The notes beneath the pieces are model-generated. The model did no database searches. It saw only the letters and a list, made by a program, of their open reading frames with translations, and had not been told where the DNA came from. From contig PASN01000012.1 in assembly GCA_002711995.1 (NCBI GenBank), positions 15,155 to 79,154 on the forward strand: DNA of 64,000 nt. The letters are read 5' to 3'. A program made the position numbers and the translations under genes. Origin of the DNA: Halobacteriovoraceae bacterium. GTDB lineage: Bacteria > Bdellovibrionota > Bacteriovoracia > Bacteriovoracales > Bacteriovoracaceae. Below are positions 2,206 through 25,138 of this stretch, one piece after another (the stretch's first letter is position 1; every line of letters starts with the position of its first letter).

Positions 2206-5200
2206 TATAAGCCTCCTTAAAGCTTGGTTGCATAAACTTAATGAAAAGACGATAGAGTGAAGGGATTACAATTAACGTTAAAAGAGTTGCGGAAATAATC
2301 CCTCCAACAACAACTGTAGCCAATGGCTTTTGCACCTCAGCACCAAGTCCGGTGGAAAACATCATAGGCAAAAATCCAAAGATATCGGTCAGGGCAGTCA
2401 TGAGCACGGGTCTCAGTCTTGTCATAGCTCCTTCTCTAACCACATCATTCGGGGATTTACCTTCTTGGAAAAGTCGGTTGAAATAAGTCACTAAAACAAC
2501 ACCGTTTAAAATACTAATTCCAGACAAAGCTATAAACCCCACTCCGGCAGAAATGCTGAAAGGCATTCCCATAAATGTAAGAGCGAGCACTCCTCCGATC
2601 AATGCCATTGGAGCACATGCAAATATAAGAGCAACTTGAGCGAAAGACTTAAAAGCTGCATAGAGCATTGCCAAGATAATTAGCATCGCCATTGGGACTA
2701 AGATACTTAGACGCTCCTTGGCACTTTGCAAATTTTTAAAACTTCCACCCCACTCTACATAGTAACCCTCGGGAAGCTTAACTTCCGCTTCAACCCTGGC
2801 CTTGGCCTTTTCAACAAAACTTTCTACGTCCCGGGTTTCTGGATTAATTAAAACGGCTACCCTCCTCTGAGAATTTTCACGGCTGACATTGCTAAAAGTC
2901 TCCACGTAGTCAATCTCAGCGACTTGATTAATTGGCACAGTATAGCCTTCAGAAATCCCTACAGGTAAGCTTCTTACAGTATGAATATCTTTTCGTTGAA
3001 CCTCACTTAACCTCGCAACAATTGGAAACTTACGGACACCCTCGTAAACATGCCCGATCTCTCGGCCACCAATAGCGGCGCTAATTGAGTCCAACACAGG
3101 CCTAGCAGTTACTCCCAATTGAGCCAGCTCCTCAATTCTTGGTGTGTATCGAAGCATTGGAGACTTGCCCTTTGACTCAGATTCCGATTCTCCAGAACCT
3201 GGAATCTCAGAAATGATTTGAGCTATTTCTTTCGAATAAGTTATAAGCTTATCTAAATCCTCACCAAAAACCTTTGCAGAAACATCAGCTCTAGTTCCCT
3301 CTAAGAGTTCATTAAATCTTAATTGAACAGGCTGAGACATAAGAAGTACTTGCCCAGGAATATACAGTTCAAGCTTCTTTTTTACAGCGGCGATCAGATC
3401 ACTTTTATTTTTTATATCTGTTTCTGGCCACTGGTCTTTTGGCCTAAGCATGACATAAGAGTCTGAAATATTAACTCCCATTGGATCTGTCGCCACCTCT
3501 GCGGCACCTGTTCTTGCAAACACCACTTTAACCTGTGGGAATCCTTCTATTACATCTTCAGATAATTGTTGAAGCTTCACAGAATTTTCAATACTGATAT
3601 TTGCAGGCCTAATAAATTGAACAGCAAAGTCCCCCTCATCCAATTGGGGAATAAACTCCGCTCCCATTTGAGAAAATAAGAAGATACCGGCAGTGATTGC
3701 GGCAACACCAATCCCCAAAACTACTTTTTTAAAGCGCAGAGCAATGTCCAAAGTTGGTCTAAAGGCTTTTTCCGCCCATCGCATAAGGAAAGGTTTATTA
3801 TCTTTGGTTTTACCAGAAAGAAATGTGGCTGCTAACGCAGGAACCAATGTAAAAGATAATATCAAAGCACTACCTAATGCCATAATAAACGTAGTTGCCA
3901 TAGGGCCAAACATTTTCCCCTCTACGCCAGTCAAAGCGAAAAGTGGAATGAAAACGACAATAACAATAAGTTCGCCAAAACCAGCGGCAGATCGGATTTC
4001 AACTGTAGCATCTTTTACAACTTTGCGGACCTCGCGTCTTGTAAGAGTACGACCCAGCTCCTTTCCTCTAATTTGTAAACGATGTACACAGTTCTCAATA
4101 ACAATAACCGCACCGTCCACAATGATTCCAAAATCCAAGGCTCCTAAGCTCATCAAATTTCCAGATACGTTTTGCCACCTCATCAATATAAATGTCGCCA
4201 ACAAAGCAATGGGAATCATTAATGCGGTTATAATAGCTGCCCTAATATTTCCTACAAGCATCAAAAGAAATAGACTTACAAGGGCCGCCCCCATAAGGAG
4301 ATTATGCTCTACAGTACTTAAGGTGGCGTTAACCATGTCCGAACGATTGTAAAGTGTTCTTAACTCAACCCAATCAGGTAAATCACCACTTATATTCTCT
4401 AATTTCTCAGCAACATCGATTGAAACGGATCTGCTATTTTCACCCAAAAGCATGAACACAGTTCCAACAATGGATTCTTCTCCCCCAACAGTTCCAGCAC
4501 CAGTACGAATTTGCTTGTCGAATTTAACTTGTGCAATGTCTTTAATCTTGATGACCTGATAATCAGAAAGCCTCTTAACAACGACATTGCCTATATCTTC
4601 GAAAGTTCTTAAAAGTCCTACACCTCTCACCAACAATTGTTGACCGGTTTGTTGAATATAGCCTCCACCTACATTTGCGTTGGTTTCTTCGATTGCTCTT
4701 TCTATGTCATCAAAGTGAAGTCCATAGCGTGCCATTTTCTCAACATCTGGCTGTACAAAGAATTGCTTATCAAAGCCTCCAATGGTGTTGATTTCAGTAA
4801 CTCCTGTTACTGTTAGAAGTCTTGGTTTAATAAACCAATCTTGAATTGACCTAAGTTCCATTAACTGGACAAGACGCTTTTCAGAATCCTGGGCTGGCTC
4901 TTTAGCTTCGATTGAATAATGAAATATTTCTCCAAGCCCTGTACTGATTGGACCCATCTCTGGAACAATTCCTTCAGGTAATTCTATATTTTGTAGTTTT
5001 TCCCCCACCAACTGCCGGGCACGATATATGTCTGCATCTTCCTCAAAAATCACAGTTACTTGACTAATGCCATACTTTGACACAGACCTGATTGTTTGAA
5101 CTCCCGGGATACCATTCATGGCATACTCGATAGGAAATGTTATCATTCTTTCTATTTCATCCGGAACATACCCTTTAACTTGGGTATTTATTTGAACTTG

Positions 5201-11712: not shown

Positions 11713-13067
11713 ATGAATGAAAATGAAACATCTATTTTATTAGTCGAAGATGATCCGATAACTCTTCAGCTTCACAAGAGGCTGCTCTCTGCATATGGAA
11801 AGGTGTATAGTGCAAAATCTTTTGACGCAGGAAAAAAGCTTATGTCTGAAAAGGATTTTGACCTAGGTTTTTTTGATCTTAACTTAGATGGAGAGCTAAA
11901 GGGTATTGAACTACTGGCACTGGCTCAAAATCACAAAGTTTATCCAGTGGTTGTATCTGGGGAAAGCCAAGATGAAGTACTAGAGAAAGCATTTCTAGAA
12001 GGTGCAAAAGATTATCTCATAAAGCCATTTAGTAAAGAAAAGTTAAATCATGTAATGGGAGGTTTTTTAATAATAAAAGACATGTCGAGTTTGAAGGCCT
12101 GATAAACAACAGTTTTATTACAAAGTCCAAAGAACAAACCGATGAGATTTACAAGATCAAGAATCTTGCCATCTCGTCAAAGCCAATTTTCATAAACTGA
12201 GAAACGGGTACTGGAAAAAGAGTTGTCTCTCACCTGATAAAGGATATTTGCCAAGCAAGCCCTTTCATCGAGATTAATTGCTCCCAATACTCTGAGAATC
12301 TTTTAGCCAGTGAGCTTTTTGGCCACAAAAGAGGTTCCTTTACCGGTGCAAATAGTGAAAAGAAAGGTCTTCTGGAAATCGCTGATGGCGGGATTGTATT
12401 TTTGGATGAAATTCATGCCCTTTCACTGAACTCCCAAAAAACATTATTAAAGGCTTTGGAGGAAAAAGAGTTCTATCCTGTAGGCTCCAATAGGCCAGTA
12501 AAGTCGAACTTCAGAATTATCACCGCGACTTGTGAAGACATTCAAGAAATGATCAATAAAGGAGAATTCAGAGAAGACTTGTTTGGCAGAATCAGTACTT
12601 TCCAGATCAACCTTCTTCCTTTACGAGAAAGAAAAGAGGATATTTTATTGCTTCTTGAGTATTTCATCTCTAAGCACTTAGTCCAAATCCTCCTTACAAG
12701 CGAGGCTAAGAAAATTCTTAAGGAGTACTCCTGGCCTAGAAACACGAGAGAAATTCAAGACTTGGTAGAAAACTGGATTGTCGAGGGGCACAGACTAATC
12801 ACGCCCGAAGTGATCCCCTCCCACATTAAAAATAATACCTCCCTAAAAAATAAAATGAATCTGGACGCCTATTTGGATATGGTAGAGGCCCACGGCCTAG
12901 GCGACGTTCTAGTCCACTTAAAAAAAGAACTCGTATTAGGAATGATAAAGCGAAACAAAACCATGAAAAAGGCTGCTGAAAAAATGGGCGTTTCGTACCC
13001 AAGCCTTAGTAAGTTTATGAAAAACAATCGAGATAACAGAATTTCAACTAAAGGACAGGGATTATGA
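11713..13067 (+). pseudogene. sigma54-dependent NtrC-family response regulator, disrupted by a frameshift and an in-frame TGA
   Basis: The receiver domain (ILLVEDDP...FFDLNLDG...KPF) is in frame 1 and stops at 12100-12102. The AAA+ domain continues in another frame, which is open from 12036: FEGLINNSF...SSKPIFIN*ETGTGK, with TGA at 12198-12200 where the Walker A Gly is expected. Then GAFTGA-like GSFTGA, DEIHALS, and a C-terminal Fis-type HTH (MKKAAEKMGVSYPSLSKFMK). Confidence 0.7.
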
Positions 13068-13261
13068 AATACGCATACCAGGCCCAACATGACCTTAAGA
13101 GCGATATTCACAATGTCCTAACTCTTCTGAAATTCATCCGAGAAGATGAGGAACTCCAAGACCCTATTCTCATGACCATGCTCGAAAAATGTCTTGAGAG
13201 AGAAGGCCGGATAAATCAAAATCTCGAAACACTGAAAGAAACAATAAAGGATAATGAATGA
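13064..13261 (+). CDS. 65-aa helical protein with a histidine-kinase H-box-like motif (stand-alone DHp-like?)
   Basis: QAQHDLKSDIHNVLTLL resembles HisKA H-boxes (compare AHDIRSPLEAL in the kinase two genes downstream). ATGA start/stop overlaps occur on both sides (13064-13067 and 13258-13261). Confidence 0.45.
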   Translation: MKYAYQAQHDLKSDIHNVLTLLKFIREDEELQDPILMTMLEKCLEREGRINQNLETLKETIKDNE

Positions 13262-13752
13262 AACACTACGAAGAAGTTATTAAAAAGCTTGATTTAGTTC
13301 CTCTTCCAGAGGAAGGAGGATTCTTTAGAGAAACTTATCGCTCTAACAGAGTGGTCTCCAGTGAGGAGCTTGGCGAGAAATGTGAATCCACTGTCATATA
13401 TTACTTGATAACAGACGATAGCTTTTCGGCTCTTCACTTGGTGGATATGGATGAGGTTTTCCACTTCTACGCCGGCTCTCCGGTAGAGATGTTTCAAATC
13501 AACGAAAAGGGAGAAGGCTCTAAAATTACTATTGGCAATGACATCTTTAACGATGAAATACCGCAGGTCATAGTTCCACATGGCGTTTGGCAAGGAACCA
13601 AACTCAAAGATCCTAAAGAAGGAGATTGGGCCTTACTAGGCTGCACCGTCGCCCCAGGTTTTGAAATTGAAAATTTTCACATCAAAAACAGAAAAGAGCT
13701 GTGTATAGAGTTTCCTCATTTAGCAGAAGATATCGCAAGGTATACTAATTAG
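13258..13752 (+). CDS. DUF985-family cupin
   Basis: PEEGGFFRETYRS, YYLITDDSFSALHLVDMDEVFHFYAGSP and LLGCTVAPGFEIENF match my memory of the cupin_5/DUF985 pattern. Confidence 0.7.
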   Translation: MKHYEEVIKKLDLVPLPEEGGFFRETYRSNRVVSSEELGEKCESTVIYYLITDDSFSALHLVDMDEVFHFYAGSPVEMFQINEKGEGSKITIGNDIFNDEIPQVIVPHGVWQGTKLKDPKEGDWALLGCTVAPGFEIENFHIKNRKELCIEFPHLAEDIARYTN

Positions 13753-13755
13753 AAA

Positions 13756-16122
13756 ATGAGAAGTTATTTAAAGATCTACCTATTGTTCTTGATCCCCTCC
13801 TGCTTGGCCTTAAGCTTTGGCTTTTACTATAGCTACGAACAGGAAGTGGGAAAAACGGTAGGCAGCTTTAAGGAGAAGTACGATCGCCTCACCAAAGTAT
13901 ACGCAGATCAGATAATCGAGATCGAGAAATCCTACGAGCAGCTAATGCGAAACTCTCTTTTGGGAATCCAGCAAGAGATAAAATCTAAGGACATCTCAAA
14001 ACAGGGACTACAGAGGGTTGCCAACAAATATAGGGTTTCCCACTTGTTTCTCATAAACAGTAAAGGCGACTTCATCAAATCCACCAATGAGGACCCGACG
14101 AAGATCCCAAACCTTTTCACGTTCTCCCAGGATTACAAGGAACTTAAGAGCGAAAAAGGAGCTTATCTTACCACGCCGATCATTATTCCCTTTCCAGAGA
14201 AGACACCACATAAGTTTCTAACCATATGGACAGGAAAGTTCTTCATTGAGGTTGGCGTTCAAATAAATGACATTGCACAAAATCTTTCAAGCATCCTTCA
14301 AAGAGACGAGAATATTTTAAGAGCGGAGCTTCTGATTGGAAAAACGCCATTTTCGGTGAAGGTAAAGGATGAAAAAGCAAAAGACCCTTTAAGTTTCATA
14401 AAGAAAATCGAATTAAAGAACCCTTTATTTACCCAATCTCTGGGGGAAGCTTCTCATCGTCACTCTTTGCAATTTAAAGTCTCTAGAAGGGAATTAAATA
14501 AGGCCATTAGCGGTATTCAACACAGGTACATCACAAACTTCTTGCTCACACTGGGTTTAATTGTTCTGCTCCTGTATTTGGCCACGAGAATTCTTCGTCG
14601 AACTATCAAAAGAATCACTTCCAATATTTTTGAAATGGCTAACGAAGAGGATTACAACAACAACCTCCGGGCGTTAACAAAGAACCAGGACTTTGAAAAA
14701 CTCATTCAGGCCATCAATAAACTTCTTAAAGGATATAGACAGTCCTCGGAAGAAAACATCAAGTCAGAAAGAAATCAGGCATACCAAAGCATGGCCCGAC
14801 AAGTTGCCCACGACATTAGGTCTCCTTTGGAAGCTCTAAAGTCGTCAAAAGAGGAATTATCCTCCCTTCACGAGCAGGATCGCTTGAAGTTAACGGCCGC
14901 TATAAACCGCATTGAGGAAATTGCATATAACCTTCTCCAATATCGTGGGAAAGATCAGAAGCCGAAATACAAAGAACCCGTTAATATTTATACAACAGTC
15001 GAAAGCATTGCCATCGAAAAGAGGATGCAATACCGAGCTAGTTCGGACCTTCATATTAAGAACCTGTTGGGTTCACATATATTGGATGCCTTTGTAAGCA
15101 TTTCCCAAGAAACATTTAAGCGCATCCTATCTAATTTGATCACAAACAGCGCCGAAGCTCTTAAGCTGAATGGAAAAATCCAAATATCAGCCCATAAAGC
15201 CAGTAATAATATTGAGATTTTGATCAAGGACAACGGGCCAGGAATATCCGAGACCATTAGAAGCGAAATAACTAAAGAAGGTTTTACCACCAAAGAAGGG
15301 GGAAGCGGTTTGGGCTTGGCCCATGCTAAAATGGAAGTTGAAAAATTAGGTGGAAAATTAAAAATTCACTCCAGTCCAGGAGGAACAACTGTTACATTAG
15401 TCCTTCCGCTTTCTGAACCCCCATCCCACTTCTTGACAAGCCTAAATTTGGGACGAGTAAATAAGGTGATAGTTTTGGACGACGATTCTACAATTCACCT
15501 TATCTGGAAAGAGCGATTGAAAGACGCCTCTTTAGAACTTGAACACTTTTACAACGGGAAAGACCTGCTTGAGGCCTATCAAGAAATCCCGAAAGATGCT
15601 CTACTGTTAAGCGACTACGAGCTTTTAGGAGAAGATCTTAACGGACTGGACTGCATAAATCAGCTTGCTTCCCCTTCTCGATCAATACTGGTCACAGCAA
15701 GAGCTGAAGAGTCTGAAATCATTTCTGCAGCGAAAGAGGTCGGCATCAAACTTCTATCTAAGGCATTAGCCCAAATCATTTCTATTGAGAAACAAGAGGC
15801 ACAGAAAAAAGACATAGTACTAATTGACGATGACGAATTAGTTCACATGAATTGGAAAAGAACCTTAGCCAGGAAAGGTATTAAGGCTCATACATTCTTT
15901 TCTGTAGATGATTTTCTAAGAGAGTCCCCCTCCTACTCTTTTGAAACTCCTATCTATATTGATTCAAATCTTGGAGAAGGATTAAAAGGTGAGTTTTTAA
16001 GTGAAAGTATAGCAGATAAGGGCTTTATAGATCTTCATATTCAAACAGGCTGTGACTCTTCCATCTTCACAAAACCTGAATGGATTAAATCCATCAAAGG
16101 AAAATCTCCTTTACATTTATAA
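13756..16122 (+). CDS. hybrid sensor histidine kinase with periplasmic sensor region and two C-terminal receiver-like domains
   Basis: Two TM segments flank a ~230-aa extracytoplasmic region. H-box QVAHDIRSPLEAL; N/G boxes (NLITNSAEAL, DNGPGI, GGSGLGLAHAK). Then VIVLDDDSTIH...LLLSDYEL and IVLIDDDELVH...IYIDSNL receiver-like modules. Confidence 0.8.
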   Translation: MRSYLKIYLLFLIPSCLALSFGFYYSYEQEVGKTVGSFKEKYDRLTKVYADQIIEIEKSYEQLMRNSLLGIQQEIKSKDISKQGLQRVANKYRVSHLFLINSKGDFIKSTNEDPTKIPNLFTFSQDYKELKSEKGAYLTTPIIIPFPEKTPHKFLTIWTGKFFIEVGVQINDIAQNLSSILQRDENILRAELLIGKTPFSVKVKDEKAKDPLSFIKKIELKNPLFTQSLGEASHRHSLQFKVSRRELNKAISGIQHRYITNFLLTLGLIVLLLYLATRILRRTIKRITSNIFEMANEEDYNNNLRALTKNQDFEKLIQAINKLLKGYRQSSEENIKSERNQAYQSMARQVAHDIRSPLEALKSSKEELSSLHEQDRLKLTAAINRIEEIAYNLLQYRGKDQKPKYKEPVNIYTTVESIAIEKRMQYRASSDLHIKNLLGSHILDAFVSISQETFKRILSNLITNSAEALKLNGKIQISAHKASNNIEILIKDNGPGISETIRSEITKEGFTTKEGGSGLGLAHAKMEVEKLGGKLKIHSSPGGTTVTLVLPLSEPPSHFLTSLNLGRVNKVIVLDDDSTIHLIWKERLKDASLELEHFYNGKDLLEAYQEIPKDALLLSDYELLGEDLNGLDCINQLASPSRSILVTARAEESEIISAAKEVGIKLLSKALAQIISIEKQEAQKKDIVLIDDDELVHMNWKRTLARKGIKAHTFFSVDDFLRESPSYSFETPIYIDSNLGEGLKGEFLSESIADKGFIDLHIQTGCDSSIFTKPEWIKSIKGKSPLHL

Positions 16123-16142: not shown

Positions 16143-17081
16143 TTACTCGCAGCTATGTAGGTATGATTTGACCTCTCTAACAAAGTTGTAAGCATCTAAA
16201 CGGGTCCATGACTGATGTCTTCCAAAAAGGTATTTAAGCTCATTCACTTCACCCCATTCTTTACAAGTATCTTCCATTAGTAGAGCCAAGCTCAAATACT
16301 CTAAACAATTTAAGGTCATTTCTTTGTATTTTTCTTCCTTAAAAATGTGATCGGGTACATTCCAGGATAAGCACTCAATTAAAAATGAGGGTGCACTAGT
16401 TTTTAACATTCCCTTGTTCGCCATTTCTTTTTTTAGATTTTTCAATATCTTTATGAATGGTTTGTGTCTTTGCCCTGTATTTGAATTTTTTTTAACATGA
16501 TTATCATAGTTTTGTTGTGGCCAATTATAGATCATCCCGCTCTTTGACGCCAACGCAACGCCTTCACAGAAACTTGTTCTAGAAGAATATCTCTTGTGGG
16601 TGGCAAGAGCGACTACATCTCCGTCGACCCTACAAGTATTTGAATGAACCTTTATAGCTTTACTCCCAACTGTCACGTTTTGCCGATCAAAGTAACTTAC
16701 CATGGCACTGGCGAGATCCAGCTTAAAATCACTTAAAGTGTATGTCGCATCCACTAGCCCGAAGTCATCATCACTAAGACCCTCAGAATATGAATTGTAA
16801 TATAATGAATTCAATCTTACGCCTACATCTACATCGCTATCGCTTGGAATATTTATCCGGTTAGCATAAGAGCCTTTAATAAATATGGTGATGTCTCTAT
16901 TTTTTAAAGCATCTGATGACTTAATGGCATCCCTCACCATTCTTTCAGTGCGACTTATTTTATCTTGCTCGGTTGTAGACGGTGGCTTCGCCCATTTTCT
17001 AAGCTTCGCCTCAATACCAGCATGAGCTTTTTCCAGTAGCTCATCTAAAATAATATTAGAATCGTCATCAAATAAACCCAA
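16143..17081 (-). CDS. CD-NTase/SMODS-like nucleotidyltransferase (candidate CBASS cyclase)
   Basis: 312 aa. GS motif and acidic dyad IKGSYANRINIPSDSDVDVGV, a third acidic strand CRVDGDVVAL ~70 aa later, then NWPQQNYDNHVKKNSNTGQRHKPFIKILKNLK. TTG start at 17081, preceded by a perfect AAGGAGG SD. Confidence 0.65.
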   Translation of the reverse strand: MGLFDDDSNIILDELLEKAHAGIEAKLRKWAKPPSTTEQDKISRTERMVRDAIKSSDALKNRDITIFIKGSYANRINIPSDSDVDVGVRLNSLYYNSYSEGLSDDDFGLVDATYTLSDFKLDLASAMVSYFDRQNVTVGSKAIKVHSNTCRVDGDVVALATHKRYSSRTSFCEGVALASKSGMIYNWPQQNYDNHVKKNSNTGQRHKPFIKILKNLKKEMANKGMLKTSAPSFLIECLSWNVPDHIFKEEKYKEMTLNCLEYLSLALLMEDTCKEWGEVNELKYLFGRHQSWTRLDAYNFVREVKSYLHSCE

Positions 17082-17108
17082 GTTACCTCCTTCTTTATTT
17101 AATAGTGC

Positions 17109-17732
17109 TCACTCAAATACTTCAATTCGTCCTTTTTTAAAAAAATCAAAGTGCATTTCACCCTTTGTATTCCTATCAGTCCAATACTTCCCTATTAATT
17201 TACTACTTCCTCCTTCAACAATATCAAGAGAGCAAGCTCCATCGTGGGCAGAGCTGCGATCGTGGACTGAGACTCTGGGCTTATTTGTATAAACATAATT
17301 CAAAGTTTTGATTTGATTTTCTGAATCAACATTAATGGCAGAACTACTACTCCAACTTTTGGACTCTCTTGTCATCTGCACACAACTTAACTTTAATAGG
17401 CTTTGCTTAATAACGATGTATGCGTCGATTGGATCTGGAACTTCTCCAGTATCAGGGTTTCGCCAATTAGTTTGCAAGCTCCCCTTCCAAGTTCCGTTGA
17501 GATCGGGCACAACAACTAACCAACCTTTAAAAATAGGAAAGCGCCACCCCCACTTAACAAAAAAAATGAATAGAGGAGAAAGCCAGCCTACAACACTTGG
17601 TACTTCTTTAATCGCTTCCCAGCTACTTGGAACATCTATTCCTTTTAAAAAAAGAATAACAACCCAAACTAGAATTGAAGTCCCAACAATTAATCCTGTT
17701 GCCCACTTGAAATTTAGGCTTTGATTCACCAT
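17109..17732 (-). CDS. two-TM protein with beta-rich C-terminal domain (candidate Cap15 / S-2TMbeta-type CBASS effector)
   Basis: 207 aa. TM1 WATGLIVGTSILVWVVILFL and TM2 VVGWLSPLFIFFVKWGW, then a ~130-aa soluble Ser/Thr/Lys-rich domain. It lies 27 nt upstream of the nucleotidyltransferase gene on the same strand. Confidence 0.5.
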   Translation of the reverse strand: MVNQSLNFKWATGLIVGTSILVWVVILFLKGIDVPSSWEAIKEVPSVVGWLSPLFIFFVKWGWRFPIFKGWLVVVPDLNGTWKGSLQTNWRNPDTGEVPDPIDAYIVIKQSLLKLSCVQMTRESKSWSSSSAINVDSENQIKTLNYVYTNKPRVSVHDRSSAHDGACSLDIVEGGSSKLIGKYWTDRNTKGEMHFDFFKKGRIEVFE

Positions 17733-17832
17733 AGTTCCTTTACCCTTAAGCCCACAGATTAAGGCAATTTACTTTCTCTAATGATTGAGGGTGTGCACTT
17801 TCTAGCTTAAAACTCAACCCTTCAACGCCCAG

Positions 17833-17841
17833 GAGTATACC
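17833..17841 (-). promoter_or_regulatory. possible extended -10 element (TGgTATACT) for the effector/cyclase operon
   Basis: The minus strand reads ...ctttaTGGTATACTcctggg about 100 nt upstream of the ATG at 17732. The -35 is poor. Confidence 0.3.
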
Positions 17842-17945
17842 ATAAAGAATAAGAAGACTCTGCCTTAAGTTTCTTTAACCCCCTTTCTAATACTAGAAAA
17901 AGAAGTGAACCTTTTATATGCTTCTGCAAAACATATTCAAGAAAA

Positions 17946-18281
17946 CTAAACAAATCCTTCAAGCATAGCATGAACAGCCTTAAGCTTTTTCTTTTCAAGG
18001 CTTTTGATCATCTCGCAGCACCGTTGCTCAAGGTCAAAAATGGTGGTTTTTCCATTCAAAAAATCAGTCCAGTCCTCGTCTGAATAGTTTAAGGCTTCAA
18101 GAAATCTTTGAAGGTACTCTTCCGAAATTTTCTCAATCCTCCCATTCTCATAATGATTAACCTTCGCCTCTTTAACACCCATCATCTTTGCCAATTTGCG
18201 AATGCTGACACCTCTGGCATTGCGCATGTTCTTCAAAGCGTAATTGGCAGGCCCCATGATTTTGTAACGACTTCTTTTCAT
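17946..18281 (-). CDS. XRE-family helix-turn-helix transcriptional regulator
   Basis: 111 aa. ARGVSIRKLAKMMGVKEAKVNHYENGR is a classic Cro/C1-type HTH. Confidence 0.7.
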   Translation of the reverse strand: MKRSRYKIMGPANYALKNMRNARGVSIRKLAKMMGVKEAKVNHYENGRIEKISEEYLQRFLEALNYSDEDWTDFLNGKTTIFDLEQRCCEMIKSLEKKKLKAVHAMLEGFV

Positions 18282-18555
18282 AATTCGACTCTCCTTTAAG
18301 TTTTTAAATTAAGAGCCCTTTTTCAATCCAAAGACCACGCAAGCGTATCCAATAATTTCAATTGGTACGCTAACATGTGGTCCAAAATGACTAAAAGAAA
18401 AATTGTTGTAGCCACAAGCCACAAGGTTGTAGCCAAAGTGTAGCCAAATAATAGCCATCTCAGGAAATTTCGGGAAATCTCCAGAAATGTCAGATGAGGG
18501 GCTAAACGCTCAAACCCTTTGTGAATCGCTGAATGCAAAGAATTGATATTAGTGA

Positions 18556-18595
18556 ATAAAAAAAGCGTCTTTGGTTATTTAGGCCAAAGACGCTT
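18556..18595 (-). terminator. rho-independent terminator downstream of tRNA-Cys
   Basis: Perfect 12-bp stem aagcgtctttgg / ccaaagacgctt (18563-18574 / 18584-18595) with a 9-nt loop, followed on the minus strand by a T-run (A-run 18558-18564 on plus). Confidence 0.65.
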
Positions 18596-18603
18596 TAAAA
18601 GTA

Positions 18604-18681
18604 TGGAGGAGACAGCCGGATTTGAACCGGCGGCTGTACGGTTTTGCAAACCGTTCCCTTGGACCACTCGGGCATGTCTCC
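18604..18681 (-). tRNA. tRNA-Cys (anticodon GCA), CCA encoded
   Basis: The reverse complement is GGAGACATGCCCGAGTGGTCCAAGGGAACGGTTTGCAAAACCGTACAGCCGCCGGTTCAAATCCGGCTGTCTCCTCCA. It folds with a 7-bp acceptor stem, anticodon stem ACGGT/ACCGT with loop TTGCAAA, and T-arm GCCGG-TTCAAAT-CCGGC. Confidence 0.85.
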
Positions 18682-18734: not shown

Positions 18735-19151
18735 TCAGTTTCTCTTTCCAAGCTTTGAATCCACACTAAACACTCCCGCTCCTGTGAATGCTAAAAGAAT
18801 AGAGCTGAATAAAAACATAAATGCGAGCTCTTTCACATTCCAAGGATCACTTGAATGAAAGATTAATCCCGCCACGGCCATATTGATTGCAAGCACAATT
18901 GCGGCAGGGCTTGTTAAAAGGCCAACTGCGATTAAGATTCCTCCCCCAAGCTCGGCAAGTCCCGCTAGCCAAGCAAAGAGACTAGGTGCAGGAAAGCCCA
19001 TTCCGGAAACCATTCCCACAAACTGATCAGCGGGTGGAACTTTACCCATGCCGTGCATGAAGGCAATGTTGAGACCAATAAATAATCTGAAAATTAAAAG
19101 ACCAGTGTCTGTCGCCTTTGAATTAACCGGCGCGCTGAAAAGAAAACTCAT
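18735..19151 (-). CDS. DoxX-family membrane protein
   Basis: 138 aa with 4 TM. LLIFRLFIGLNIAFMHGMGKV and AELGGGILIAVGLLT are typical DoxX motifs. Confidence 0.75.
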   Translation of the reverse strand: MSFLFSAPVNSKATDTGLLIFRLFIGLNIAFMHGMGKVPPADQFVGMVSGMGFPAPSLFAWLAGLAELGGGILIAVGLLTSPAAIVLAINMAVAGLIFHSSDPWNVKELAFMFLFSSILLAFTGAGVFSVDSKLGKRN

Positions 19152-19235
19152 ATTAACTCCTTTTTAGACAATCATATCCAATAAGGCGTTTTGAGTAACA
19201 GGCCACAGCTTAGATATGGCCTGTATATGAAGAGA

Positions 19236-19652
19236 TTACTTTTTGCTGATCAGTCTATCCACGCTAAACGCTCCAGGTCCAGCAGTGAACAAAAGAACGC
19301 AGCAAGATAGATATAGAAGCGCTAGCTCTTTCTTAGCGAATGGATCAGCTCCATGAACCAAGAATGCGGCAATTACCATTGTTCCGCCCAAGGCCAATGC
19401 TGAAAATCTCGTGGCAAGTCCAATCGCAATCAGTAGTCCCCCGCCAAATTCAGCGATGGCGGCAAGCCATGCCATAAGTTCAGGCGCTGGAAGTCCAAGG
19501 GATCCGACAAATCCCATAAAAGCAGGCTTTGGCGGTATCTTTCCAAGTCCGTGAGCGAAGGCCATAGTGAACCCAACGTATAATCTAAATAACAACAATC
19601 CCAAATTGTGCATGTTCGAGTAGCTCTCAGCTCCCATCAAAAACTTTTTCAT
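19236..19652 (-). CDS. DoxX-family membrane protein (tandem paralog)
   Basis: 138 aa, colinear with and clearly similar to the 18735-19151 product. Confidence 0.75.
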   Translation of the reverse strand: MKKFLMGAESYSNMHNLGLLLFRLYVGFTMAFAHGLGKIPPKPAFMGFVGSLGLPAPELMAWLAAIAEFGGGLLIAIGLATRFSALALGGTMVIAAFLVHGADPFAKKELALLYLSCCVLLFTAGPGAFSVDRLISKK

Positions 19653-19691
19653 ATATCCTCCAAGTTATTGTTTTATTGTTACAAGTATAAA

Positions 19692-19719
19692 ATAAAAAGG
19701 GAAGCCTCTAAGGCCTCCC
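19692..19719 (-). terminator. rho-independent terminator after the HU/IHF gene
   Basis: Hairpin gggaagcc-tctaa-ggcctccc (19699-19719) is followed on the minus strand by TTTTT (plus-strand A-run 19694-19698). Confidence 0.6.
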
Positions 19720-19762
19720 TCGATATATATAAAGAAATTTATTTTAAAGACTAGAGCGAGAT

Positions 19763-20068
19763 TTAAGCTTCTCTGATTACATACTTCTCTTTTCCGGCGT
19801 CCACCATCTCTTTAAGCTCTTTGCCAACTTTAAAGAATGGAACCTTCTTAGGATCAACCTTCACAACTTTGCCAGTCTTTGGGTTTCTTCCTTCGTATGC
19901 TTTGTAGTTTCTATTTGCGAAAGATCCAAAGCCTCTAATCTCAATTCCCTCGTCGTCGTAAAGAGCTTGAATCATAGTATCAAAAGCGATGTTCACAATT
20001 TTCTCAGCTTGCTTTGGATTAAGGTTTGCCTGTTTTTCAATTACGGCAATCAAATCAGCTTTAGTCAT
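19763..20068 (-). CDS. HU/IHF-family DNA-binding protein (IHF-beta-like)
   Basis: 101 aa. IRGFGSFANRNYKAYEGRNPKTGKVVKVDPKKVPFFKVGKELK is the DNA-binding arm signature. Confidence 0.85.
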   Translation of the reverse strand: MTKADLIAVIEKQANLNPKQAEKIVNIAFDTMIQALYDDEGIEIRGFGSFANRNYKAYEGRNPKTGKVVKVDPKKVPFFKVGKELKEMVDAGKEKYVIREA

Positions 20069-20261
20069 AATCTCTCTCCTTGCTCGTGCAATATGTAATA
20101 TTTGATACTTATATCGGTCACTAAACTGAAAAACATTAGTTTAGTAATCAATAAATGCACAATTACTTGGCAACTTTGAGGGAAGCATATTCATAAAATA
20201 CACCTAACCTACTGTTATTACGATTATACGGCCTATTCATGATTTTATTAAGCTAAAATAT

Positions 20262-20288
20262 TAAATAACTGACGCTGGTAGTCGATAA
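20262..20288 (+). promoter_or_regulatory. sigma28 (FliA)-like promoter: TAAA-N15-GTCGATAA
   Basis: TAAA at 20262-20265, a 15-nt spacer, and GTCGATAA at 20281-20288, 15 nt upstream of the ATG at 20304. Confidence 0.45.
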
Positions 20289-20303
20289 GATACTAAGAAT
20301 ATT

Positions 20304-21830
20304 ATGAAAAAACTTGTATACGTCCTATTCATCTGTGTTTTTGCGGCCTCCTGTTTGGAGGACGAGTCAAGAATGCGCCCCACAATAAATCCTTATCAGG
20401 ATTTAATTACCGGTGGTGACGATGACGCAGACGACAAATCTGATGAATTTGAGCTGCCTACAAGGCCTGATGGTGCAGTGTATCTTCAATCTGGGTTTTG
20501 TGGATGTAGCGAGGGCGAAGCAATAACCTTGGGAGCAAACTGCGTAAGCTTTTGCGAAGGAAAAAATCATCCAGAAGAATTCCTATATGTAGATGTAAAG
20601 GTTGGAGAAGAAATAGAAACCTCATCTCTAGTTGATCTCGCAGGATGGTGTACAAAACCCCTATCTTACACAGACCCTGAAACAGGTGCAATTGAACAAA
20701 TTCAAGTTGACGCTTCCTGCCAGGCACAGTTTAAAGACGAAAACGGTTCGACGGGCGGAGTAACAGTTGACACGATCTCTTCTGGAGACACATCTGTAAA
20801 AATCAATATCGCACTACTTGATCCAGATAAAACTTACAGGCTTAAAATTGCCGAAACTCAAAGTGGAGCAAGCTCAAACACAATTCAAGTGAGAAAAGTA
20901 TCAGCTAGGGTTACTGACCCAGTTGGTGGACCTCTAGCTCTTATGCCGGTTAATCAATATACATGCTTAAATAGAACTGTCTCTTCGGAAGAAGGCACAG
21001 GACAAGCATTCTTTGATTCTGCTCAAAGAAGTCACTACTACTTCATTAATGAAGATAGGCCAGATCCTTTGCCAGACACTTACTCAAACATCTTCTGCCA
21101 CGACTTTTTAATCTATGGCACCACTCCTATAAATGACCCTCTTATTGAAGAGACTCCTGGACAGTTCACTGTATGGAGCAAGTGGGACCCAAGGTTTTTT
21201 GACCTAAGTGGCGCTGAAGATGGAACCACAACTGAGATACATAAAATTCTTCAACAAAAGATCGAGGATCAAGGCTACTCCGTGGACACACCTCCAAGTG
21301 TTTTCTTTCCACTTGAGTATTACAATGGGCCTCCAATAACTAACAATGATGGAGAAACAACTGAGCCTCAGCAAAAGCACCTTGGCTACTATATGCTTCC
21401 ATATGTGGATGACAGCACATTTAAGGCATACTGCCCTACCGCTGAACACTACAATTCTGAAAACCCGCTGTTCTCAGCAATGAAGGAAGTTGTGGGCGTT
21501 GACACTGAAGGACTTTACATAGCCAAGCAGGTTAATGTTTGTGACTACATACTTATTACTGAATCAGTTCTTAAAAAGATTTGGTTCTACAAAGAGAATG
21601 GCCAACACTTTGAGCCTACGGACAACACCGTTGCAGGCAAGAAAGTTCAGTTTTACTGGCCGGCAGATCCAGACTCACCTTTTATTAAAAAGTCTCACCA
21701 GAGGACATACACAATCAAAAAACCTGATGAGTTGTCTTGTGGGTCAACCAATGTCTCAGACAATGCAAACGAAGCAAACCAAAGCTTCCCGCCACACGAC
21801 AAACGTATTGGTTGCGTTCCAAAAATGTAA
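20304..21830 (+). CDS. lipoprotein of unknown function
   Basis: 508 aa with lipobox VFAASC, Cys-containing and Asp/Thr-rich. I recognise no family. Confidence 0.6.
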   Translation: MKKLVYVLFICVFAASCLEDESRMRPTINPYQDLITGGDDDADDKSDEFELPTRPDGAVYLQSGFCGCSEGEAITLGANCVSFCEGKNHPEEFLYVDVKVGEEIETSSLVDLAGWCTKPLSYTDPETGAIEQIQVDASCQAQFKDENGSTGGVTVDTISSGDTSVKINIALLDPDKTYRLKIAETQSGASSNTIQVRKVSARVTDPVGGPLALMPVNQYTCLNRTVSSEEGTGQAFFDSAQRSHYYFINEDRPDPLPDTYSNIFCHDFLIYGTTPINDPLIEETPGQFTVWSKWDPRFFDLSGAEDGTTTEIHKILQQKIEDQGYSVDTPPSVFFPLEYYNGPPITNNDGETTEPQQKHLGYYMLPYVDDSTFKAYCPTAEHYNSENPLFSAMKEVVGVDTEGLYIAKQVNVCDYILITESVLKKIWFYKENGQHFEPTDNTVAGKKVQFYWPADPDSPFIKKSHQRTYTIKKPDELSCGSTNVSDNANEANQSFPPHDKRIGCVPKM

Positions 21831-21832
21831 AT

Positions 21833-22513
21833 TTATAAGTGATAATACTTTAAGACTATGTCCAGCGTAGGTGTGAGCTCATCTTTAAAAATCACATAAA
21901 AGGAAATGATATTTGCGGAAAATGCCGCAATCCCAATACACATCTTTACAAGGATTCTTCTAAAGATGTTTCCTTTGCTGTTGAAAAGATTGAGAAAGAA
22001 AACAGAGACAAACACCCCTATTAGAATCATCCCGTACTTTTTAACTTTTTCAGGCTTATTTACCAAGCTTAAAAGAGATGGCAGCGCCCTTCTATCTCTC
22101 AAGATATCAATAAACATATCCAAAAATTTTGGCTTTTCTTTTAAGAAGTCTCCGAAAGGCTGCCCCTCAAGTCTTGAAAGCACAAGACTTTGAAGCTCAC
22201 TCTTACTCATATTGGAAAAGGGATTTTGCTTTAGAAAGCGGCCAATAAACTTCTTGGACGCATTATTCATGATCTTTGAAATGAAGGAGTCTTCAATTTT
22301 CACAGGGGCCACAGGTTCGATAATTTCAGGCCGTTCCTCTTCGTAATTGTCCTCTTCAATAACCCTATCTACCTCAGTGGTTTCCTGAGGCGCAGGTTTC
22401 TTCGAATATTCACGAAGAATTCTCTCTCTATAGGCCTCATCATCCTCCTGCGAATAAGCAGGAGGAGTAAAAATAAGACCTAAAAAGAGAGTAAGTAAAA
22501 GATTAAGCTTCAT
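21833..22513 (-). CDS. secreted/membrane-anchored protein of unknown function, translationally overlapping secF
   Basis: The ATG at 22513 gives MKLNLLLTLFLGLIFTPPAYSQ (signal peptide) and C-terminal TM segments. It overlaps the secF 3' end by 11 nt. The track start at 22588 lies inside secF. Confidence 0.5.
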   Translation of the reverse strand: MKLNLLLTLFLGLIFTPPAYSQEDDEAYRERILREYSKKPAPQETTEVDRVIEEDNYEEERPEIIEPVAPVKIEDSFISKIMNNASKKFIGRFLKQNPFSNMSKSELQSLVLSRLEGQPFGDFLKEKPKFLDMFIDILRDRRALPSLLSLVNKPEKVKKYGMILIGVFVSVFFLNLFNSKGNIFRRILVKMCIGIAAFSANIISFYVIFKDELTPTLDIVLKYYHL

Positions 22514-23405
22514 CACCCTTCTTTCCAGCGATTTTGTCGAAGAACAATACGGTTGGAGCGGCAACAAAGATTGAAGAATAAGTACCAACTAATACGCCGA
22601 TACAAATCGCGAAGAAAAAGTCTTGAATAATACCGCCACCCATAAAATACATTACTCCGGCCACAATCAAAGTTGTAATTGAAGTAAGAATTGTTCTGGA
22701 TAGAGTCTCATTTAATGCGCCGTTGATTTGCTCTTTAAGACTTCTTGAAGTGTATTTTTCCTCATGCTCACGAACACGGTCATAAACAACAACCGTATCG
22801 TTAACAGAGTAACCAATAACGGCAAGAAGGGCACCAACGATTTGAAGGCTGAATTCTTTGTCCATTAAAGAGAAAATACCGATAATGATAATTACATCGT
22901 GAAGAAGTGCCACAATCGCACCTGGCGAGTATTTGTAGTCAAATCTCAAGGCAATGTAGATCATGATCATCAAAAGTGCCCATGCCATAGCTTGGAATCC
23001 AGAAATTCTCAACTGCTCACCCGCCTTAGGCCCTACGATGTCTGTCTTTAGTATTTCAGAGCCCTTGTCGCTGAAATCTGCCTGAAGCATCTTTGTAATC
23101 TGATCAGTAACTTGGTTTAAGTTTGACTCGCTTGCAGCGACTTTAACAAGAAATTGACTCTCATCCTCATCCCCTATTCTTTGAACAGAAGAAGACTTAA
23201 AGTTATTGGAGTCCAAAGAGTCTCTCAACTCTTCTAGTTGCGTGTCTTTTTCAAACGCCACCTGGATCTCAGCTCCCCCTCTAAAGTCTACACCGTAGTT
23301 TAGACCCTTAGAGAAGAATAAAGATAGTGAACCTATAACCAGCACCGCGGACAAGACCACGGACACAGGAAATTTGGAAACAAAACTAATATTAAATTTG
23401 CTCAT
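22503..23405 (-). CDS. secF: protein translocase subunit SecF
   Basis: 300 aa. GLNYGVDFRGG, and a 6-TM SecF pattern directly downstream of secD. Confidence 0.9.
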   Translation of the reverse strand: MSKFNISFVSKFPVSVVLSAVLVIGSLSLFFSKGLNYGVDFRGGAEIQVAFEKDTQLEELRDSLDSNNFKSSSVQRIGDEDESQFLVKVAASESNLNQVTDQITKMLQADFSDKGSEILKTDIVGPKAGEQLRISGFQAMAWALLMIMIYIALRFDYKYSPGAIVALLHDVIIIIGIFSLMDKEFSLQIVGALLAVIGYSVNDTVVVYDRVREHEEKYTSRSLKEQINGALNETLSRTILTSITTLIVAGVMYFMGGGIIQDFFFAICIGVLVGTYSSIFVAAPTVLFFDKIAGKKGDEA

Positions 23406-23419
23406 ATTTTAAATCCTTT

Positions 23420-25138
23420 TTAAATGCTTACTTTCTTGCCACCAGTTCTGGCCATGTAAAACTCAAAGTACAATCTACTTACAAAGTAAGAAGTGTACAC
23501 TGTACAGGCGATACCAATTAGTAGAGTCACCGCGAATCCTCTAATTGGGCCAGTTCCAAAGTTTAATAGCATTAAACCTGCAACAGCAGTGGTTAAGTTG
23601 GCATCTAGAATTGTCCAGAAAGCTCTTGAGAAACCAGTTGCAACGGCCTCTCTTGCAGGAGTTCCAATTCTTAGCTCCTCTTTGATTCTTTCAAAGATAA
23701 TGATATTGCCGTCAATCGCCATACCTACCGTCAATACGATACCTGCGATACCTGGAAGAGTAAGAGTTGCCTCAAGTCCCACCAAGCAAGCAAGAACAAA
23801 GATCACGTTAAGCGCAAGCGCCTTGATCGCAAGAACGCCAGAAACTTTGTAGTAGATAACAATGAACAATAGAACAATGAAAGCTCCAATCAAACCAGCA
23901 GTCTCAGCTTTTTCAATTGAGTCAGCACCCAGTGATGGACCAACAATTCTTTGCTCTTGAAATTCTAGCTCAACTGGAAGTGCACCTGCTCTTAGAACCA
24001 AAGACAAGTCTCTAGCCTCTTTTAGAAGATCGTTATAGTTTCCTTGACCTAAAGTAATCTGAGCGTTTCCACCACCAATTCTTGATTGGATAACTGGATC
24101 TGAATAAACGTTGTTATCTAAAATAATTGCCAGTCTCTTTCCGATATTGTCGCCAGTCACCTGCTCAAAAAGCTTGGCGCCCTGACTCTTAAAAGTAATG
24201 CCAACGTATGGCAGATTGTCTTGTGGATCGATTCTAACAACTGCATCCTGAATCTCTTCCCCTGTAACACTTGGAGTAGACTCAACAACGTATGGAATCA
24301 ATTGCTCAACTTCATTGCTAACGGGATTTAGAATCTTCTTGAACACAAGCTCAAAGCCATTTGGAATTTCTTCTTTGAATTTTTGGTTCATTTGAAGAGC
24401 GTACTCTGAAAACCTCTGTCCTCTTTTATATACAAGGCCATCTTTTTCAGATGTTTCCATCCAGCTCTGAAGAGTGTCCGGATTTACTTCTTCATTAACA
24501 ATTCTAAAAGAAAGTTTCGCAGTCTTTCCAATTAGGTCTTTCGCTCTTTCGATGTCTTTAACACCTGGAAGCTGAACAACAATTCTGTCCTCACCTAAAG
24601 AAACAATCTCTGGCTCGGTAACACCAAATTCGTCAATTCTGTTTCTAATAACTTCAATTGATTTTTTAACAGCATTGTCTTCAATATCTTCCTTAAACTC
24701 TCTTCCAAGGGCATAAGTAAGAGTGGCACCTTCGTTGCCCACAAGTCTTAATGGAAAAGAGTAGAACTCTTCAATTTTATCTTGTGCTGCATCCATTTGA
24801 GCAGCACTTGAAAGAGTTAATGTGTGCTTTGGATCTTCAGGATCAGAGATATTTAACTCTCCAATCTGAGAGCCAATCCCCTCATCTTTCAAAGTGTTTT
24901 CCACTTTCTTGATGTAGTTTTTAACTTCGTCTCTATAGACCTTATTAAAGTCAATTCCCAAAACCATATAAAGGCCACCTTGAAGGTCAAGACCTAGATT
25001 GATTTTTGACTTAACGGGAAAATCGGACTTCTCCGGATCAAATCCAAAGAATGTCGGGATTACTGCCATTATCGCAACAATAGACAAGAACAGTAATAAA
25101 CTAAAACGATACCACCAACTGCGATTCATTAAATTCAC
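23420..25138 (-). CDS. secD: protein translocase subunit SecD
   Basis: 572 aa. LGLDLQGG, a large periplasmic domain, and C-terminal TM bundle GIAGIVLTVGMAIDGNIIIFERIKEE. Confidence 0.9.
   Translation of the reverse strand: MNLMNRSWWYRFSLLLFLSIVAIMAVIPTFFGFDPEKSDFPVKSKINLGLDLQGGLYMVLGIDFNKVYRDEVKNYIKKVENTLKDEGIGSQIGELNISDPEDPKHTLTLSSAAQMDAAQDKIEEFYSFPLRLVGNEGATLTYALGREFKEDIEDNAVKKSIEVIRNRIDEFGVTEPEIVSLGEDRIVVQLPGVKDIERAKDLIGKTAKLSFRIVNEEVNPDTLQSWMETSEKDGLVYKRGQRFSEYALQMNQKFKEEIPNGFELVFKKILNPVSNEVEQLIPYVVESTPSVTGEEIQDAVVRIDPQDNLPYVGITFKSQGAKLFEQVTGDNIGKRLAIILDNNVYSDPVIQSRIGGGNAQITLGQGNYNDLLKEARDLSLVLRAGALPVELEFQEQRIVGPSLGADSIEKAETAGLIGAFIVLLFIVIYYKVSGVLAIKALALNVIFVLACLVGLEATLTLPGIAGIVLTVGMAIDGNIIIFERIKEELRIGTPAREAVATGFSRAFWTILDANLTTAVAGLMLLNFGTGPIRGFAVTLLIGIACTVYTSYFVSRLYFEFYMARTGGKKVSI

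Follow-up and report, generated by a model that had tools for sequence, protein, structure and literature searches.

The window analysed here (the whole 64,000-nt stretch, positions 15,155 to 79,154 of contig PASN01000012.1 from a Halobacteriovoraceae bacterium) carries a type I (two-gene) system of antiphage signalling by cyclic oligonucleotides (CBASS), in which a CD-NTase (cGAS/DncV-like nucleotidyltransferase; cycB) and a Cap15 effector (Cap15a) lie in a small islet beside a tRNA-Cys gene of a Bdellovibrio-and-like organism (BALO). Taken as a whole, the data are best explained, with reasonable probability, by a type I CBASS abortive-infection module held in a small, decayed islet of marine, uncultured Bacteriovoracaceae, the two genes of which have been re-paired. 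In such a module, phage infection would lead the clade-E CD-NTase to make a cyclic dinucleotide (predicted cUU or cUC), which would bind the beta-barrel of Cap15; Cap15 would then oligomerise via its two N-terminal membrane helices and break the inner membrane, and the infected cell would die before phage release. The helix-turn-helix (HTH) protein encoded upstream would autoregulate through an array of TGGCTA repeats, and its promoter may drive low-level read-through of both CBASS genes. Within this scheme we infer which nucleotide is made, what sets the cyclase off, and that this Cap15 responds to this cyclase.

An initial annotation, made from the letters of the window alone, had placed here two co-directional genes 27 nt apart and read them as the effector and cyclase of a two-gene CBASS. 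The open reading frames (ORFs) are present exactly so (Table 1), and the core of that call is backed by profile, solved-structure and fold matches, with those of the cyclase and effector lying far beyond chance (E ~1e-21 to 1e-104). No Cap2, Cap3, HORMA or TRIP13-like neighbours were found among the window ORFs, in the Pfam annotation of identical contigs, or by PADLOC on the neighbours, and the system is therefore assigned to type I, as had been proposed. Proteins identical to the window cyclase are encoded, in the same arrangement, on several contigs from marine metagenomes, and also in a metagenome-assembled genome (MAG) of an uncultured Bacteriovoracaceae bacterium (L008; loci used for comparison bear L numbers), a 100% protein match that agrees with the BALO host guessed earlier. 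The closest isolate is Halobacteriovorax sp. BALOs_7 (cyclase 77%, Cap15 76% identity). More than 1,300 cyclase homologues are spread over many phyla, several Bdellovibrionota MAGs included, and seven are located on viral contigs; CBASS of the CdnE plus Cap15 kind are common and already well characterised.

Over its full length, the cyclase matched the PADLOC cyclase model PDLC00801 (E = 2.7e-104) and the solved structures of LpCdnE (7x4f, 6.5e-65), ClCdnE (7x4a, 2.1e-54) and EfCdnE (7x4c, 6.5e-53); RmCdnE (6e0k) and EmCdnE (6e0m) are further solved clade-E matches, the PDB matches together spanning 6.5e-65 to 6.7e-32. The Pol-beta/CD-NTase catalytic signature noticed in the initial annotation is real: when aligned to LpCdnE (D65/D67/D139), its motifs fall on the catalytic positions G70-S71, D83, D85 and D155, which make up the GS...DxD...D active site and are invariant across 30 cyclase homologues. 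Profile searches, which had been suggested as a check on the cyclase, bore this out for PADLOC and the PDB, while local Pfam gave only sub-threshold matches (SMODS, E = 0.006; NTP_transf_2, 0.13); every cyclase homologue is annotated with the newer Pfam family CD_NTase_C (PF26305). The NCBIfam nucleotidyltransferase model NF053871 'DS2_2_antiphage' aligned over the full length at 180.4 bits against a cut-off of 350, and the cyclase is a relative of this family, not an equivalog.

The lid residues of the cyclase correspond to those of LpCdnE in lid-1 (N186 = N173), lid-2 (N191 = N178) and lid-3 (Q290-S-W292 = Q274-M-W276), and both marks of the cyclic di-pyrimidine CdnE subgroup, the lid-1 Asn and the lid-3 (R/Q)xW motif, are present. 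In that subgroup the lid-1 Asn recognises the acceptor uracil, and (R/Q)xW confines the donor pocket to pyrimidines; when the W or the R of the motif is changed to A in EfCdnE, cUA or cUG (U-purine) is made in place of cUU (Yang et al., PMC10442399). Because N186, N191 and Q290-x-W292 match this defining lid motif, the window cyclase is predicted to be a cyclic di-pyrimidine synthase (cUU-type; cUU or cUC). The TTG start behind a perfect AAGGAGG, pointed out in the initial annotation, is found in place (Table 1). TTG with a strong Shine-Dalgarno sequence recurs in four of the five orthologue start regions read (window, BALOs_7, L007, L088), the exception being L092, the cyclase of which starts with ATG and has no clear Shine-Dalgarno sequence; in a sixth lineage (L187) a TTG lies one codon 3' of the called start, and the Shine-Dalgarno sequence is absent. 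Since TTG and Shine-Dalgarno sequence are conserved, the start codon is not an ORF-calling artefact, and a weak TTG start retained in this clade of cyclases suggests that low doses of the enzyme are selected for.

The effector matched Pfam PF18153 (Cap15_CD_rec) over residues 75-195 (8.9e-21; 74.9 bits, where the cut-off is 31.2) and the PADLOC 2TM model PDLC00702 (1.6e-71), the 2TM models matching from residue 5. An AlphaFold2 model built with 23 homologues (pLDDT 91.5, pTM 0.83) has helices at residues 8-30 and 44-60, followed by an 8-stranded beta-barrel receptor domain at 80-199. The three best PDB matches of this model in Foldseek were all to Cap15 of Yersinia aleksiciae (7n34/7n35; TM(target) 0.77-0.83, probability 1.0), that to 7n34 reaching a TM(target) of 0.83 with an rmsd of 2.9. 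A sequence search of the effector against the PDB returned no relevant match, and the fold search was needed; sequence identity to characterised Cap15 is only ~20%. A C-terminal minimal beta-barrel of the cyclic-dinucleotide receptor type is accordingly seen by Pfam, model and Foldseek, and two N-terminal transmembrane helices by model and PADLOC, of which only the first exceeds 1.6 on the Kyte-Doolittle scale, leaving the second less certain. The Cap15/S-2TMbeta architecture put forward in the initial annotation is thereby confirmed, and its suggestion that the C-terminal domain might be a new family has to be dropped, because the PF18153 match lies well above the gathering threshold and the fold is that of Yersinia Cap15. 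All family-invariant Cap15 residues are kept. The cyclase therefore has an adjacent effector with a cyclic-nucleotide sensing domain, on the same strand and 27 nt away.

Gene order was surveyed by calling ORFs in all fetched loci and searching them with custom-built hidden Markov models; in the metagenome set, 80 of the 85 loci had been found through Cap15, and the genome set had been found through the cyclase. Cap15 lies immediately 3' of the cyclase in 76/79 genome loci, the cyclase lies immediately 5' of Cap15 in 79/85 metagenome loci, and all seven viral loci have the order cyclase-then-Cap15. A Cap15 directly 3' of its cognate CD-NTase is typical of these systems, if not strictly defining, and in the window the cyclase is the 3' gene. 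The effector-first order, which had been listed as unusual, thus runs counter to the order in about 160 related loci, and a Cap15 5' of a cycB-type cyclase was seen only in the window population and in BALOs_7 (~170 loci). The survey also brought up Cap15-family genes at L142 (2093-2740) and L161 (3762-4409) with no cyclase upstream despite room on the contig, which may be orphan effectors, and a viral contig (L182; IMG/VR UViG_3300014531_000055) that combines two cyclase ORFs with three Cap15-like ones, oriented in opposite directions.

Comparison with BALOs_7 suggests how the order in the window arose. In BALOs_7 the genes run cycA (320 aa), Cap15a, cycB and an FRG gene, with Cap15a overlapping the cycA stop by 4 nt. 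DNA homology between the two covers exactly Cap15a through cycB (window 17716-16159, 73.7% nucleotide identity), with the 27/28-nt Cap15a-cycB junction conserved; it ends on both sides, the flanks are unrelated, and no remnants of cycA or FRG were found in the window. The closest relatives of Cap15a (L176, 70%; L178, 60%; L179, 54%) each lie 3' of a cycA-type cyclase, whose identity to BALOs_7 cycA is 70%, 38% and 54%, respectively, and to the cycB clade 28-33% (cycA and cycB of BALOs_7 are 29% identical). Orthologues of cycB at 62-68% identity (L007/L009, L088-L091, L092, L187) have a different effector downstream, Cap15b (191-193 aa), copies of which in L007, L088 and L092 are 76-80% identical mutually and 30% identical to Cap15a; the cyclases nearest to cycB in turn have the nearest Cap15b relatives as their partners. 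Because the nearest relatives of each gene are so paired, cycA with Cap15a and cycB with Cap15b would be the ancestral cognate pairs, and the shared Cap15a-cycB junction points to a tandem intermediate that predates the split of the lineages. An ancestor would have held the two operons in tandem, [cycA->Cap15a] and [cycB->Cap15b]; Cap15b would have been lost before the window and BALOs_7 lineages separated, BALOs_7 keeping cycA-Cap15a-cycB, and the later loss of cycA in the window lineage would have left Cap15a with the non-cognate, same-family cycB. The effector-first order appears to be a historical accident, and the window pair an effector and a cyclase that were brought together secondarily and were not cognate by ancestry.

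The FRG protein of BALOs_7 was considered as the effector of cycB and rejected: it matches the stand-alone PADLOC candidate PDC-S15 and has no homologue 3' of cycB in L088 or L092, and is therefore taken to be a separate system. This FRG-domain gene (PDC-S15, 5.6e-28) overlaps the stop codon of the second cyclase. The island around it (L006, CP027772.1 744113-761051) also holds an integrase and an AbiP2-type reverse transcriptase (5e-182), and its cyclase-Cap15-cyclase trio is the only arrangement of two cyclases with one effector among the ~170 loci. In L007 (UBA3083; 4602-4979), an HTH-cyclase-Cap15b operon lies ~2.6 kb from a tmRNA gene, in a small-RNA-gene-associated defence island that also holds HEPN_Swt1, DUF5343, an ISL3 transposase and an Eco57I-type restriction-modification system.

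The HTH protein encoded upstream of Cap15a matched HTH_31 (3.1e-11) and HTH_3 (1.4e-10) and has in addition a conserved C-terminal helical half; the NCBIfam model phage_RstR aligned over nearly its full length, below the cut-off. An exhaustive search for homologues gave 314 representative clusters; many are proteins of ~110 aa that align from one end to the other. Full-length homologues lie 5' of cycB operons in L007 (27%) and L092 (38%), and others lie at the same chromosomal site as in the window without a CBASS, in L173/L174 (44%) and L175 (38%). The protein thus belongs to a separate, RstR-like ~110-aa family that goes with the tRNA-Cys island hot spot and with this clade of cyclases; it is not demonstrably CapH-like, and is probably the regulator of the islet. 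The TGGCT(A/T) repeats 5' of its gene (Table 1) are spaced 11, 11, 14 and 7 nt apart, mostly one helical turn. With at most one mismatch, TTGGCTACA has 19 matches in the whole window, three of which fall within a 41-nt stretch here. Like arrays stand 5' of homologous HTH genes in L092 (4 x TGGCTAG) and L175 (3 x), where the surrounding DNA is unalignable, and the TGGCTA array is a candidate operator for autoregulation of the HTH gene.

The spacer between HTH and Cap15a is invariant in six population contigs. A scan of its 213 nt for terminators and promoters found nothing; a sigma70-like TTGAAT-16-TATAAA was found by eye at 17940-17913. RNA structure was not indicated either (fold z-score 0.08; no Rfam match besides the tRNA), and since the spacer is without terminator or structured RNA, read-through from the HTH promoter into the CBASS genes is possible. 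An imperfect direct repeat of 24 nt (AAACTTAAGG.AGAGTC, coding strand; 79% identity) occurs at 17849-17872, in the spacer upstream of Cap15, and at 18280-18303, across the ribosome-binding site of the HTH gene, and may be due to chance.

We consider it fairly likely that the window pair works as a CBASS. Between window and BALOs_7, Cap15a shows dN 0.144 and dS 1.52 (ω 0.095) and cycB shows dN 0.153 with saturated dS, and from these rates both genes are under purifying selection (ω≈0.1). On the window branch, codon changes are synonymous to non-synonymous in ratios of 22:10 in Cap15a and 37:8 in cycB. All full-length population copies are intact (six contigs for Cap15a, seven for the cyclase), with 0 non-synonymous differences, and cycB has stayed intact in the two lineages, window and BALOs_7, that are both without Cap15b. 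Cap15a-type effectors at 38-46% identity have a partner with (Q/R/K)xW in 78/78 cyclases with a readable lid-3, and a closer relative of Cap15a (L188, 57%) follows a cyclase with a C-terminal HQPW; because other Cap15a-type relatives are natively paired with (Q/R/K)xW cyclases, the pairing of Cap15a with cycB is chemically plausible. The L188 cyclase fragment (1-320) has in-frame stops before its conserved C-terminus; it is a pseudogene, or else low coverage has led to an error in the assembly. The Cap15-cyclase block first looked exceptionally invariant, but a map of single-nucleotide polymorphisms showed most of the left flank to be equally clean, with patchy divergence, and no selective sweep is claimed.

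Several observations weigh against a working pair. The two genes are no ancestral cognate pair, and the cycA-type partners of the nearest Cap15a relatives show QFN, QPN, RLS and AIF at lid-3, with no Trp. As these partners are Trp-less, and a W-to-A change shifts the product of EfCdnE (PMC10442399), the native ligand of Cap15a may differ from the product of cycB and, by analogy with that mutant, may contain a purine. The window branch has more unique residue changes than that of BALOs_7, both in Cap15a (21 vs 9; χ² 4.8) and in cycB (30 vs 11; χ² 8.8); in this relative-rate test, which had no control genes, the faster window branch could reflect relaxed constraint or a lineage-wide difference in rate. 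Population variation amounts to one synonymous site, too low for a test of present-day selection, and the TGGCTA motif was not found upstream of Cap15.

Observations of this kind favour the view that cycB and Cap15a are two orphan halves that no longer cooperate, a silent relic heading to decay: the pairing is phylogenetically incongruent, the Trp-less lid-3 of the cycA-type partners probably means a different signal (PMC10442399), both genes have evolved faster on the window branch, and effector-first order is met, the window lineage and BALOs_7 apart, in none of the ~170 other loci. Decay on that scale sits poorly with ORFs that are intact in the window and in all full-length population copies, with a dN/dS of ~0.1 over a divergence that has saturated synonymous sites, and with the retention of all catalytic, lid and family-invariant Cap15 residues; two lineages, moreover, have retained cycB in the absence of Cap15b from a time before they split, and Cap15a-type effectors elsewhere are paired with QxW cyclases. 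We therefore regard the relic as unlikely, if still to be reckoned with. Signalling in trans, with the cyclase serving another effector or Cap15a being served by another cyclase, encoded elsewhere in the genome, and their adjacency incidental, would account for the non-canonical order and for a 27-nt gap in place of the usual overlap or close coupling, and defence islands commonly stack independent systems, as BALOs_7 does with AbiP2, a two-cyclase CBASS and PDC-S15. The window, though, holds no other cyclase or Cap15 in its 64 kb and no other PADLOC match near the islet, and the junction, spacing and Shine-Dalgarno sequence of Cap15a-cycB are conserved between two species, which makes this quite improbable.

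Two further alternatives concern the identity of the proteins. The initial annotation had called the HTH protein CapH-like with no CapP partner, and if so it would be a repressor that holds the CBASS off until DNA damage. An XRE gene does lie directly upstream, as had been stated, PADLOC capH gives a weak match (3.3e-4), and in L007 and L092 HTH genes of the same family stand ahead of the orthologous cyclase operon. The capH match, however, covers the generic HTH part only and is lower than those to RmrA; the gene is co-directional with the operon, no CapP-like metallopeptidase is found in the window locus or in related loci, the same family occurs at the same site beside an integrase or other cargo where there is no CBASS, and the repeat motif 5' of the HTH gene is not present 5' of Cap15. 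The absence of CapP stands, a likeness to CapH is not demonstrable, and a CapH-type repressor is improbable. The possibility that the initial annotation itself had named as its undoing, with the 312-aa protein an MNT toxin-antitoxin or aminoglycoside nucleotidyltransferase and the 207-aa protein a housekeeping membrane protein, could draw only on the sub-threshold Pfam matches given above. It was rejected on the PADLOC, PDB and Foldseek matches, and can be practically dismissed: the cyclase can be aligned along its whole length with five solved CdnE and with the PADLOC cyclase models, its homologues all carry PF26305, and profile and fold alike identify the 207-aa protein as a Cap15, which is found with a cyclase in nearly all loci.

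Beyond a working CBASS of re-paired genes, we tentatively entertain, as a reading that we find slightly harder to accept than to doubt, a natural cyclase swap, in which a Cap15 that evolved with Trp-less cycA-type cyclases is now served by a (Q)xW di-pyrimidine cyclase, by way of an intermediate with two cyclases and one effector such as BALOs_7 still has, and in which expression of the whole unit is perhaps driven by the promoter of an RstR-like repressor that belongs to the island and regulates itself, not through CapH/CapP. If this is true, Cap15 barrels would be promiscuous enough, or fast-adapting enough, to be re-wired between signals, and one effector could be fed by two sensor cyclases.

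The slot that holds the islet, between tRNA-Cys and the kinase gene, carries other cargo in relatives. Synteny with L173 (89% nucleotide identity over window 12000-16026; kinase 83% identical) stops at the 3' end of the kinase, and the slot in L173/L174 holds a 450-aa coiled-coil membrane protein beside an HTH gene; in L175 (kinase 59% identical) it holds a tyrosine integrase beside an HTH gene. In L173/L174, an exact 15-nt copy of the 3' end of tRNA-Cys lies 5' of the HTH gene, followed by a similar terminator, and an intact tRNA is absent there; this fragment is the kind of remnant that is left by integration into a tRNA. With its location on the 3' side of the tRNA and its variable cargo among relatives, the tRNA-Cys-to-kinase slot is an integration hot spot with exchangeable cargo. 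The window shows no integrase similarity, no second copy of the tRNA-Cys 3' end, and no flanking att direct repeat other than chance-level short ones, which a hot spot with exchangeable cargo would explain; in this, and in its position between a convergent kinase and the 3' side of tRNA-Cys, the islet is just as first described. The 450-aa protein in this slot (L173/L174, 9452-10804) has a long coiled coil and C-terminal membrane segments; its JetC, LmuB and ZorA matches are weak and probably compositional, and it may be uncharacterised defence cargo.

On the far side of the islet, identity to the population contigs (L001, L002, L004, L008, L093) is ~99% from 10.1 kb to 18743 and ~80% beyond (18744-23500), where the gene order remains the same (DoxX, HU, a 508-aa protein, SecDF); because identity collapses immediately past it, tRNA-Cys marks a sharp recombination or mosaic breakpoint. 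DoxX genes are in tandem in the window (18735-19151, 19236-19652) and in L001, and in single copy in L002, L004, L008 and L093, a copy-number polymorphism. Within the kinase, the patch 14500-15500 has ~2.8% divergence common to six population contigs against a nearly identical background, and the kinase is 788 aa long in the window and L001 and 768 aa in the other contigs.

The features of the islet and its edges are listed in Table 1. The kinase ends 20 nt from the cyclase stop, and the neighbours, as seen from ORFs and the Pfam annotation of identical contigs, are the HTH gene, tRNA-Cys, DoxX and the histidine kinase. The GC content of the islet (0.37-0.40) differs slightly from that of its flanks (0.40-0.43). 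Small ORFs at 17822-17998, 18309-18458 and 18323-18538 were treated as spurious, as they are not conserved in related loci, and PADLOC gave no match for 17822-17998 and 18323-18538. Elsewhere the window has the genes of an ordinary chromosome (AcrB, SecDF, a ClpB-like ATPase, MscS). Large proteins, probably secreted or surface-located, are encoded at 39027-43529, 52966-56058, 60558-62435 and 37330-38766; one, an ORF of 1500 aa, has neither a Pfam nor a PADLOC match, two have RCC1 repeats and another is a DUF285 protein. They may be related to predation, with no connection to the CBASS.

Table 1 Features of the CBASS islet and its borders, in window coordinates.
Feature	Coordinates	Strand	Remarks
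Cyclase cycB ORF, 312 aa	16143..17081	-	TTG start at 17081; CdnE-clade CD-NTase
Shine-Dalgarno sequence AAGGAGG	17086..17092	-	4 nt 5' of cyclase TTG; read from sequence
Effector Cap15a ORF, 207 aa	17109..17732	-	ATG start; 27 nt 5' of cyclase
HTH-Cap15 spacer, 213 nt	17733..17945	-	terminator-free, no structured RNA
XRE-type HTH ORF, 111 aa	17946..18281	-	HTH_31/HTH_3 match
TGGCT(A/T) direct-repeat array, n = 5	18408..18457	-	candidate operator or iteron 5' of HTH gene
Intrinsic terminator hairpin, perfect 13-bp stem then T-run	18562..18596	-	inverted repeat and sequence; 3' of tRNA-Cys
tRNA-Cys(GCA)	18604..18681	-	ARAGORN; Rfam 61.3 bits; 3' side towards islet
Hybrid histidine kinase, 788 aa, convergent	13756..16122	+	Pfam HATPase_c/Response_reg; core flank, left islet edge

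Among known systems, the window shares its two-gene make-up with the CdnE plus Cap15 type I CBASS of Legionella pneumophila (LpCdnE), Cecembia (ClCdnE) and Enterococcus (EfCdnE); other Cap15 systems of that kind are those of Yersinia aleksiciae and Escherichia albertii, and Ssc-CdnE03/Cap15 of Staphylococcus schleiferi. The window cyclase is alike over its full length to LpCdnE, ClCdnE and EfCdnE (6.5e-65 to 6.5e-53), with the Asp triad, lid-1 Asn and (R/Q)xW in common, and the architecture and fold of the effector are shared as well; the mechanism to be expected is multimerisation of Cap15 on ligand binding, with disruption of the inner membrane (PMC12657230, PMC12657218, PMC10686824). In those systems the order is near-universally cyclase-then-Cap15, overlapping or abutting, whereas the window has the effector first with a 27-nt gap, genes from different operons, an HTH gene of a distinct family upstream, and a predatory Bacteriovoracaceae host. 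The nearest known locus, BALOs_0738/0739 of BALOs_7 (CP027772.1, ~750.5-753 kb; Cap15 76%, cyclase 77% identical), has the same junction and the same TTG start, but keeps cycA (without lid-3 Trp) and the FRG gene overlapping the cycB stop, shares its island with an integrase and an AbiP2-type reverse transcriptase, and has no HTH gene of the window family directly upstream. With CapH/CapP modules the window has in common a small XRE-type HTH gene adjoining a CBASS operon; it differs in that the HTH gene is co-directional, resembles capH in the generic part only and belongs to a family that also occurs without CBASS, and a CapP Zn-metallopeptidase, the other half of such a module, is encoded by no ORF of the islet or of related loci. 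Panoptes (mCpol OptS plus S-2TMbeta OptE) shares the effector superfamily (PMC12657218, PMC12657230), but its synthase is an mCpol; the window has no mCpol partner, its synthase is a CD-NTase, and there is no sign of inverse (inhibitory) signalling.

A further copy of CdnE and Cap15 adds little in itself, and the value of the finding is modest. Predatory bacteria are exposed to phages and are considered as living antibiotics. A literature search on CBASS together with BALO genus names found, among the papers listed from the library searched, none linking the two, and the presence of such a system in a predator is mildly new, although it is to be expected, because the family is widespread. The series of loci from L176 [cycA-Cap15a] and L007 [HTH-cycB-Cap15b] through BALOs_7 [cycA-Cap15a-cycB] to the window [HTH | Cap15a-cycB] represents a traceable modular exchange, and provides a natural test set for the ligand specificity of Cap15 and for the role of the lid-3 Trp. 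The islet itself illustrates the turnover of defence cargo at a tRNA-Cys hot spot in predatory bacteria.

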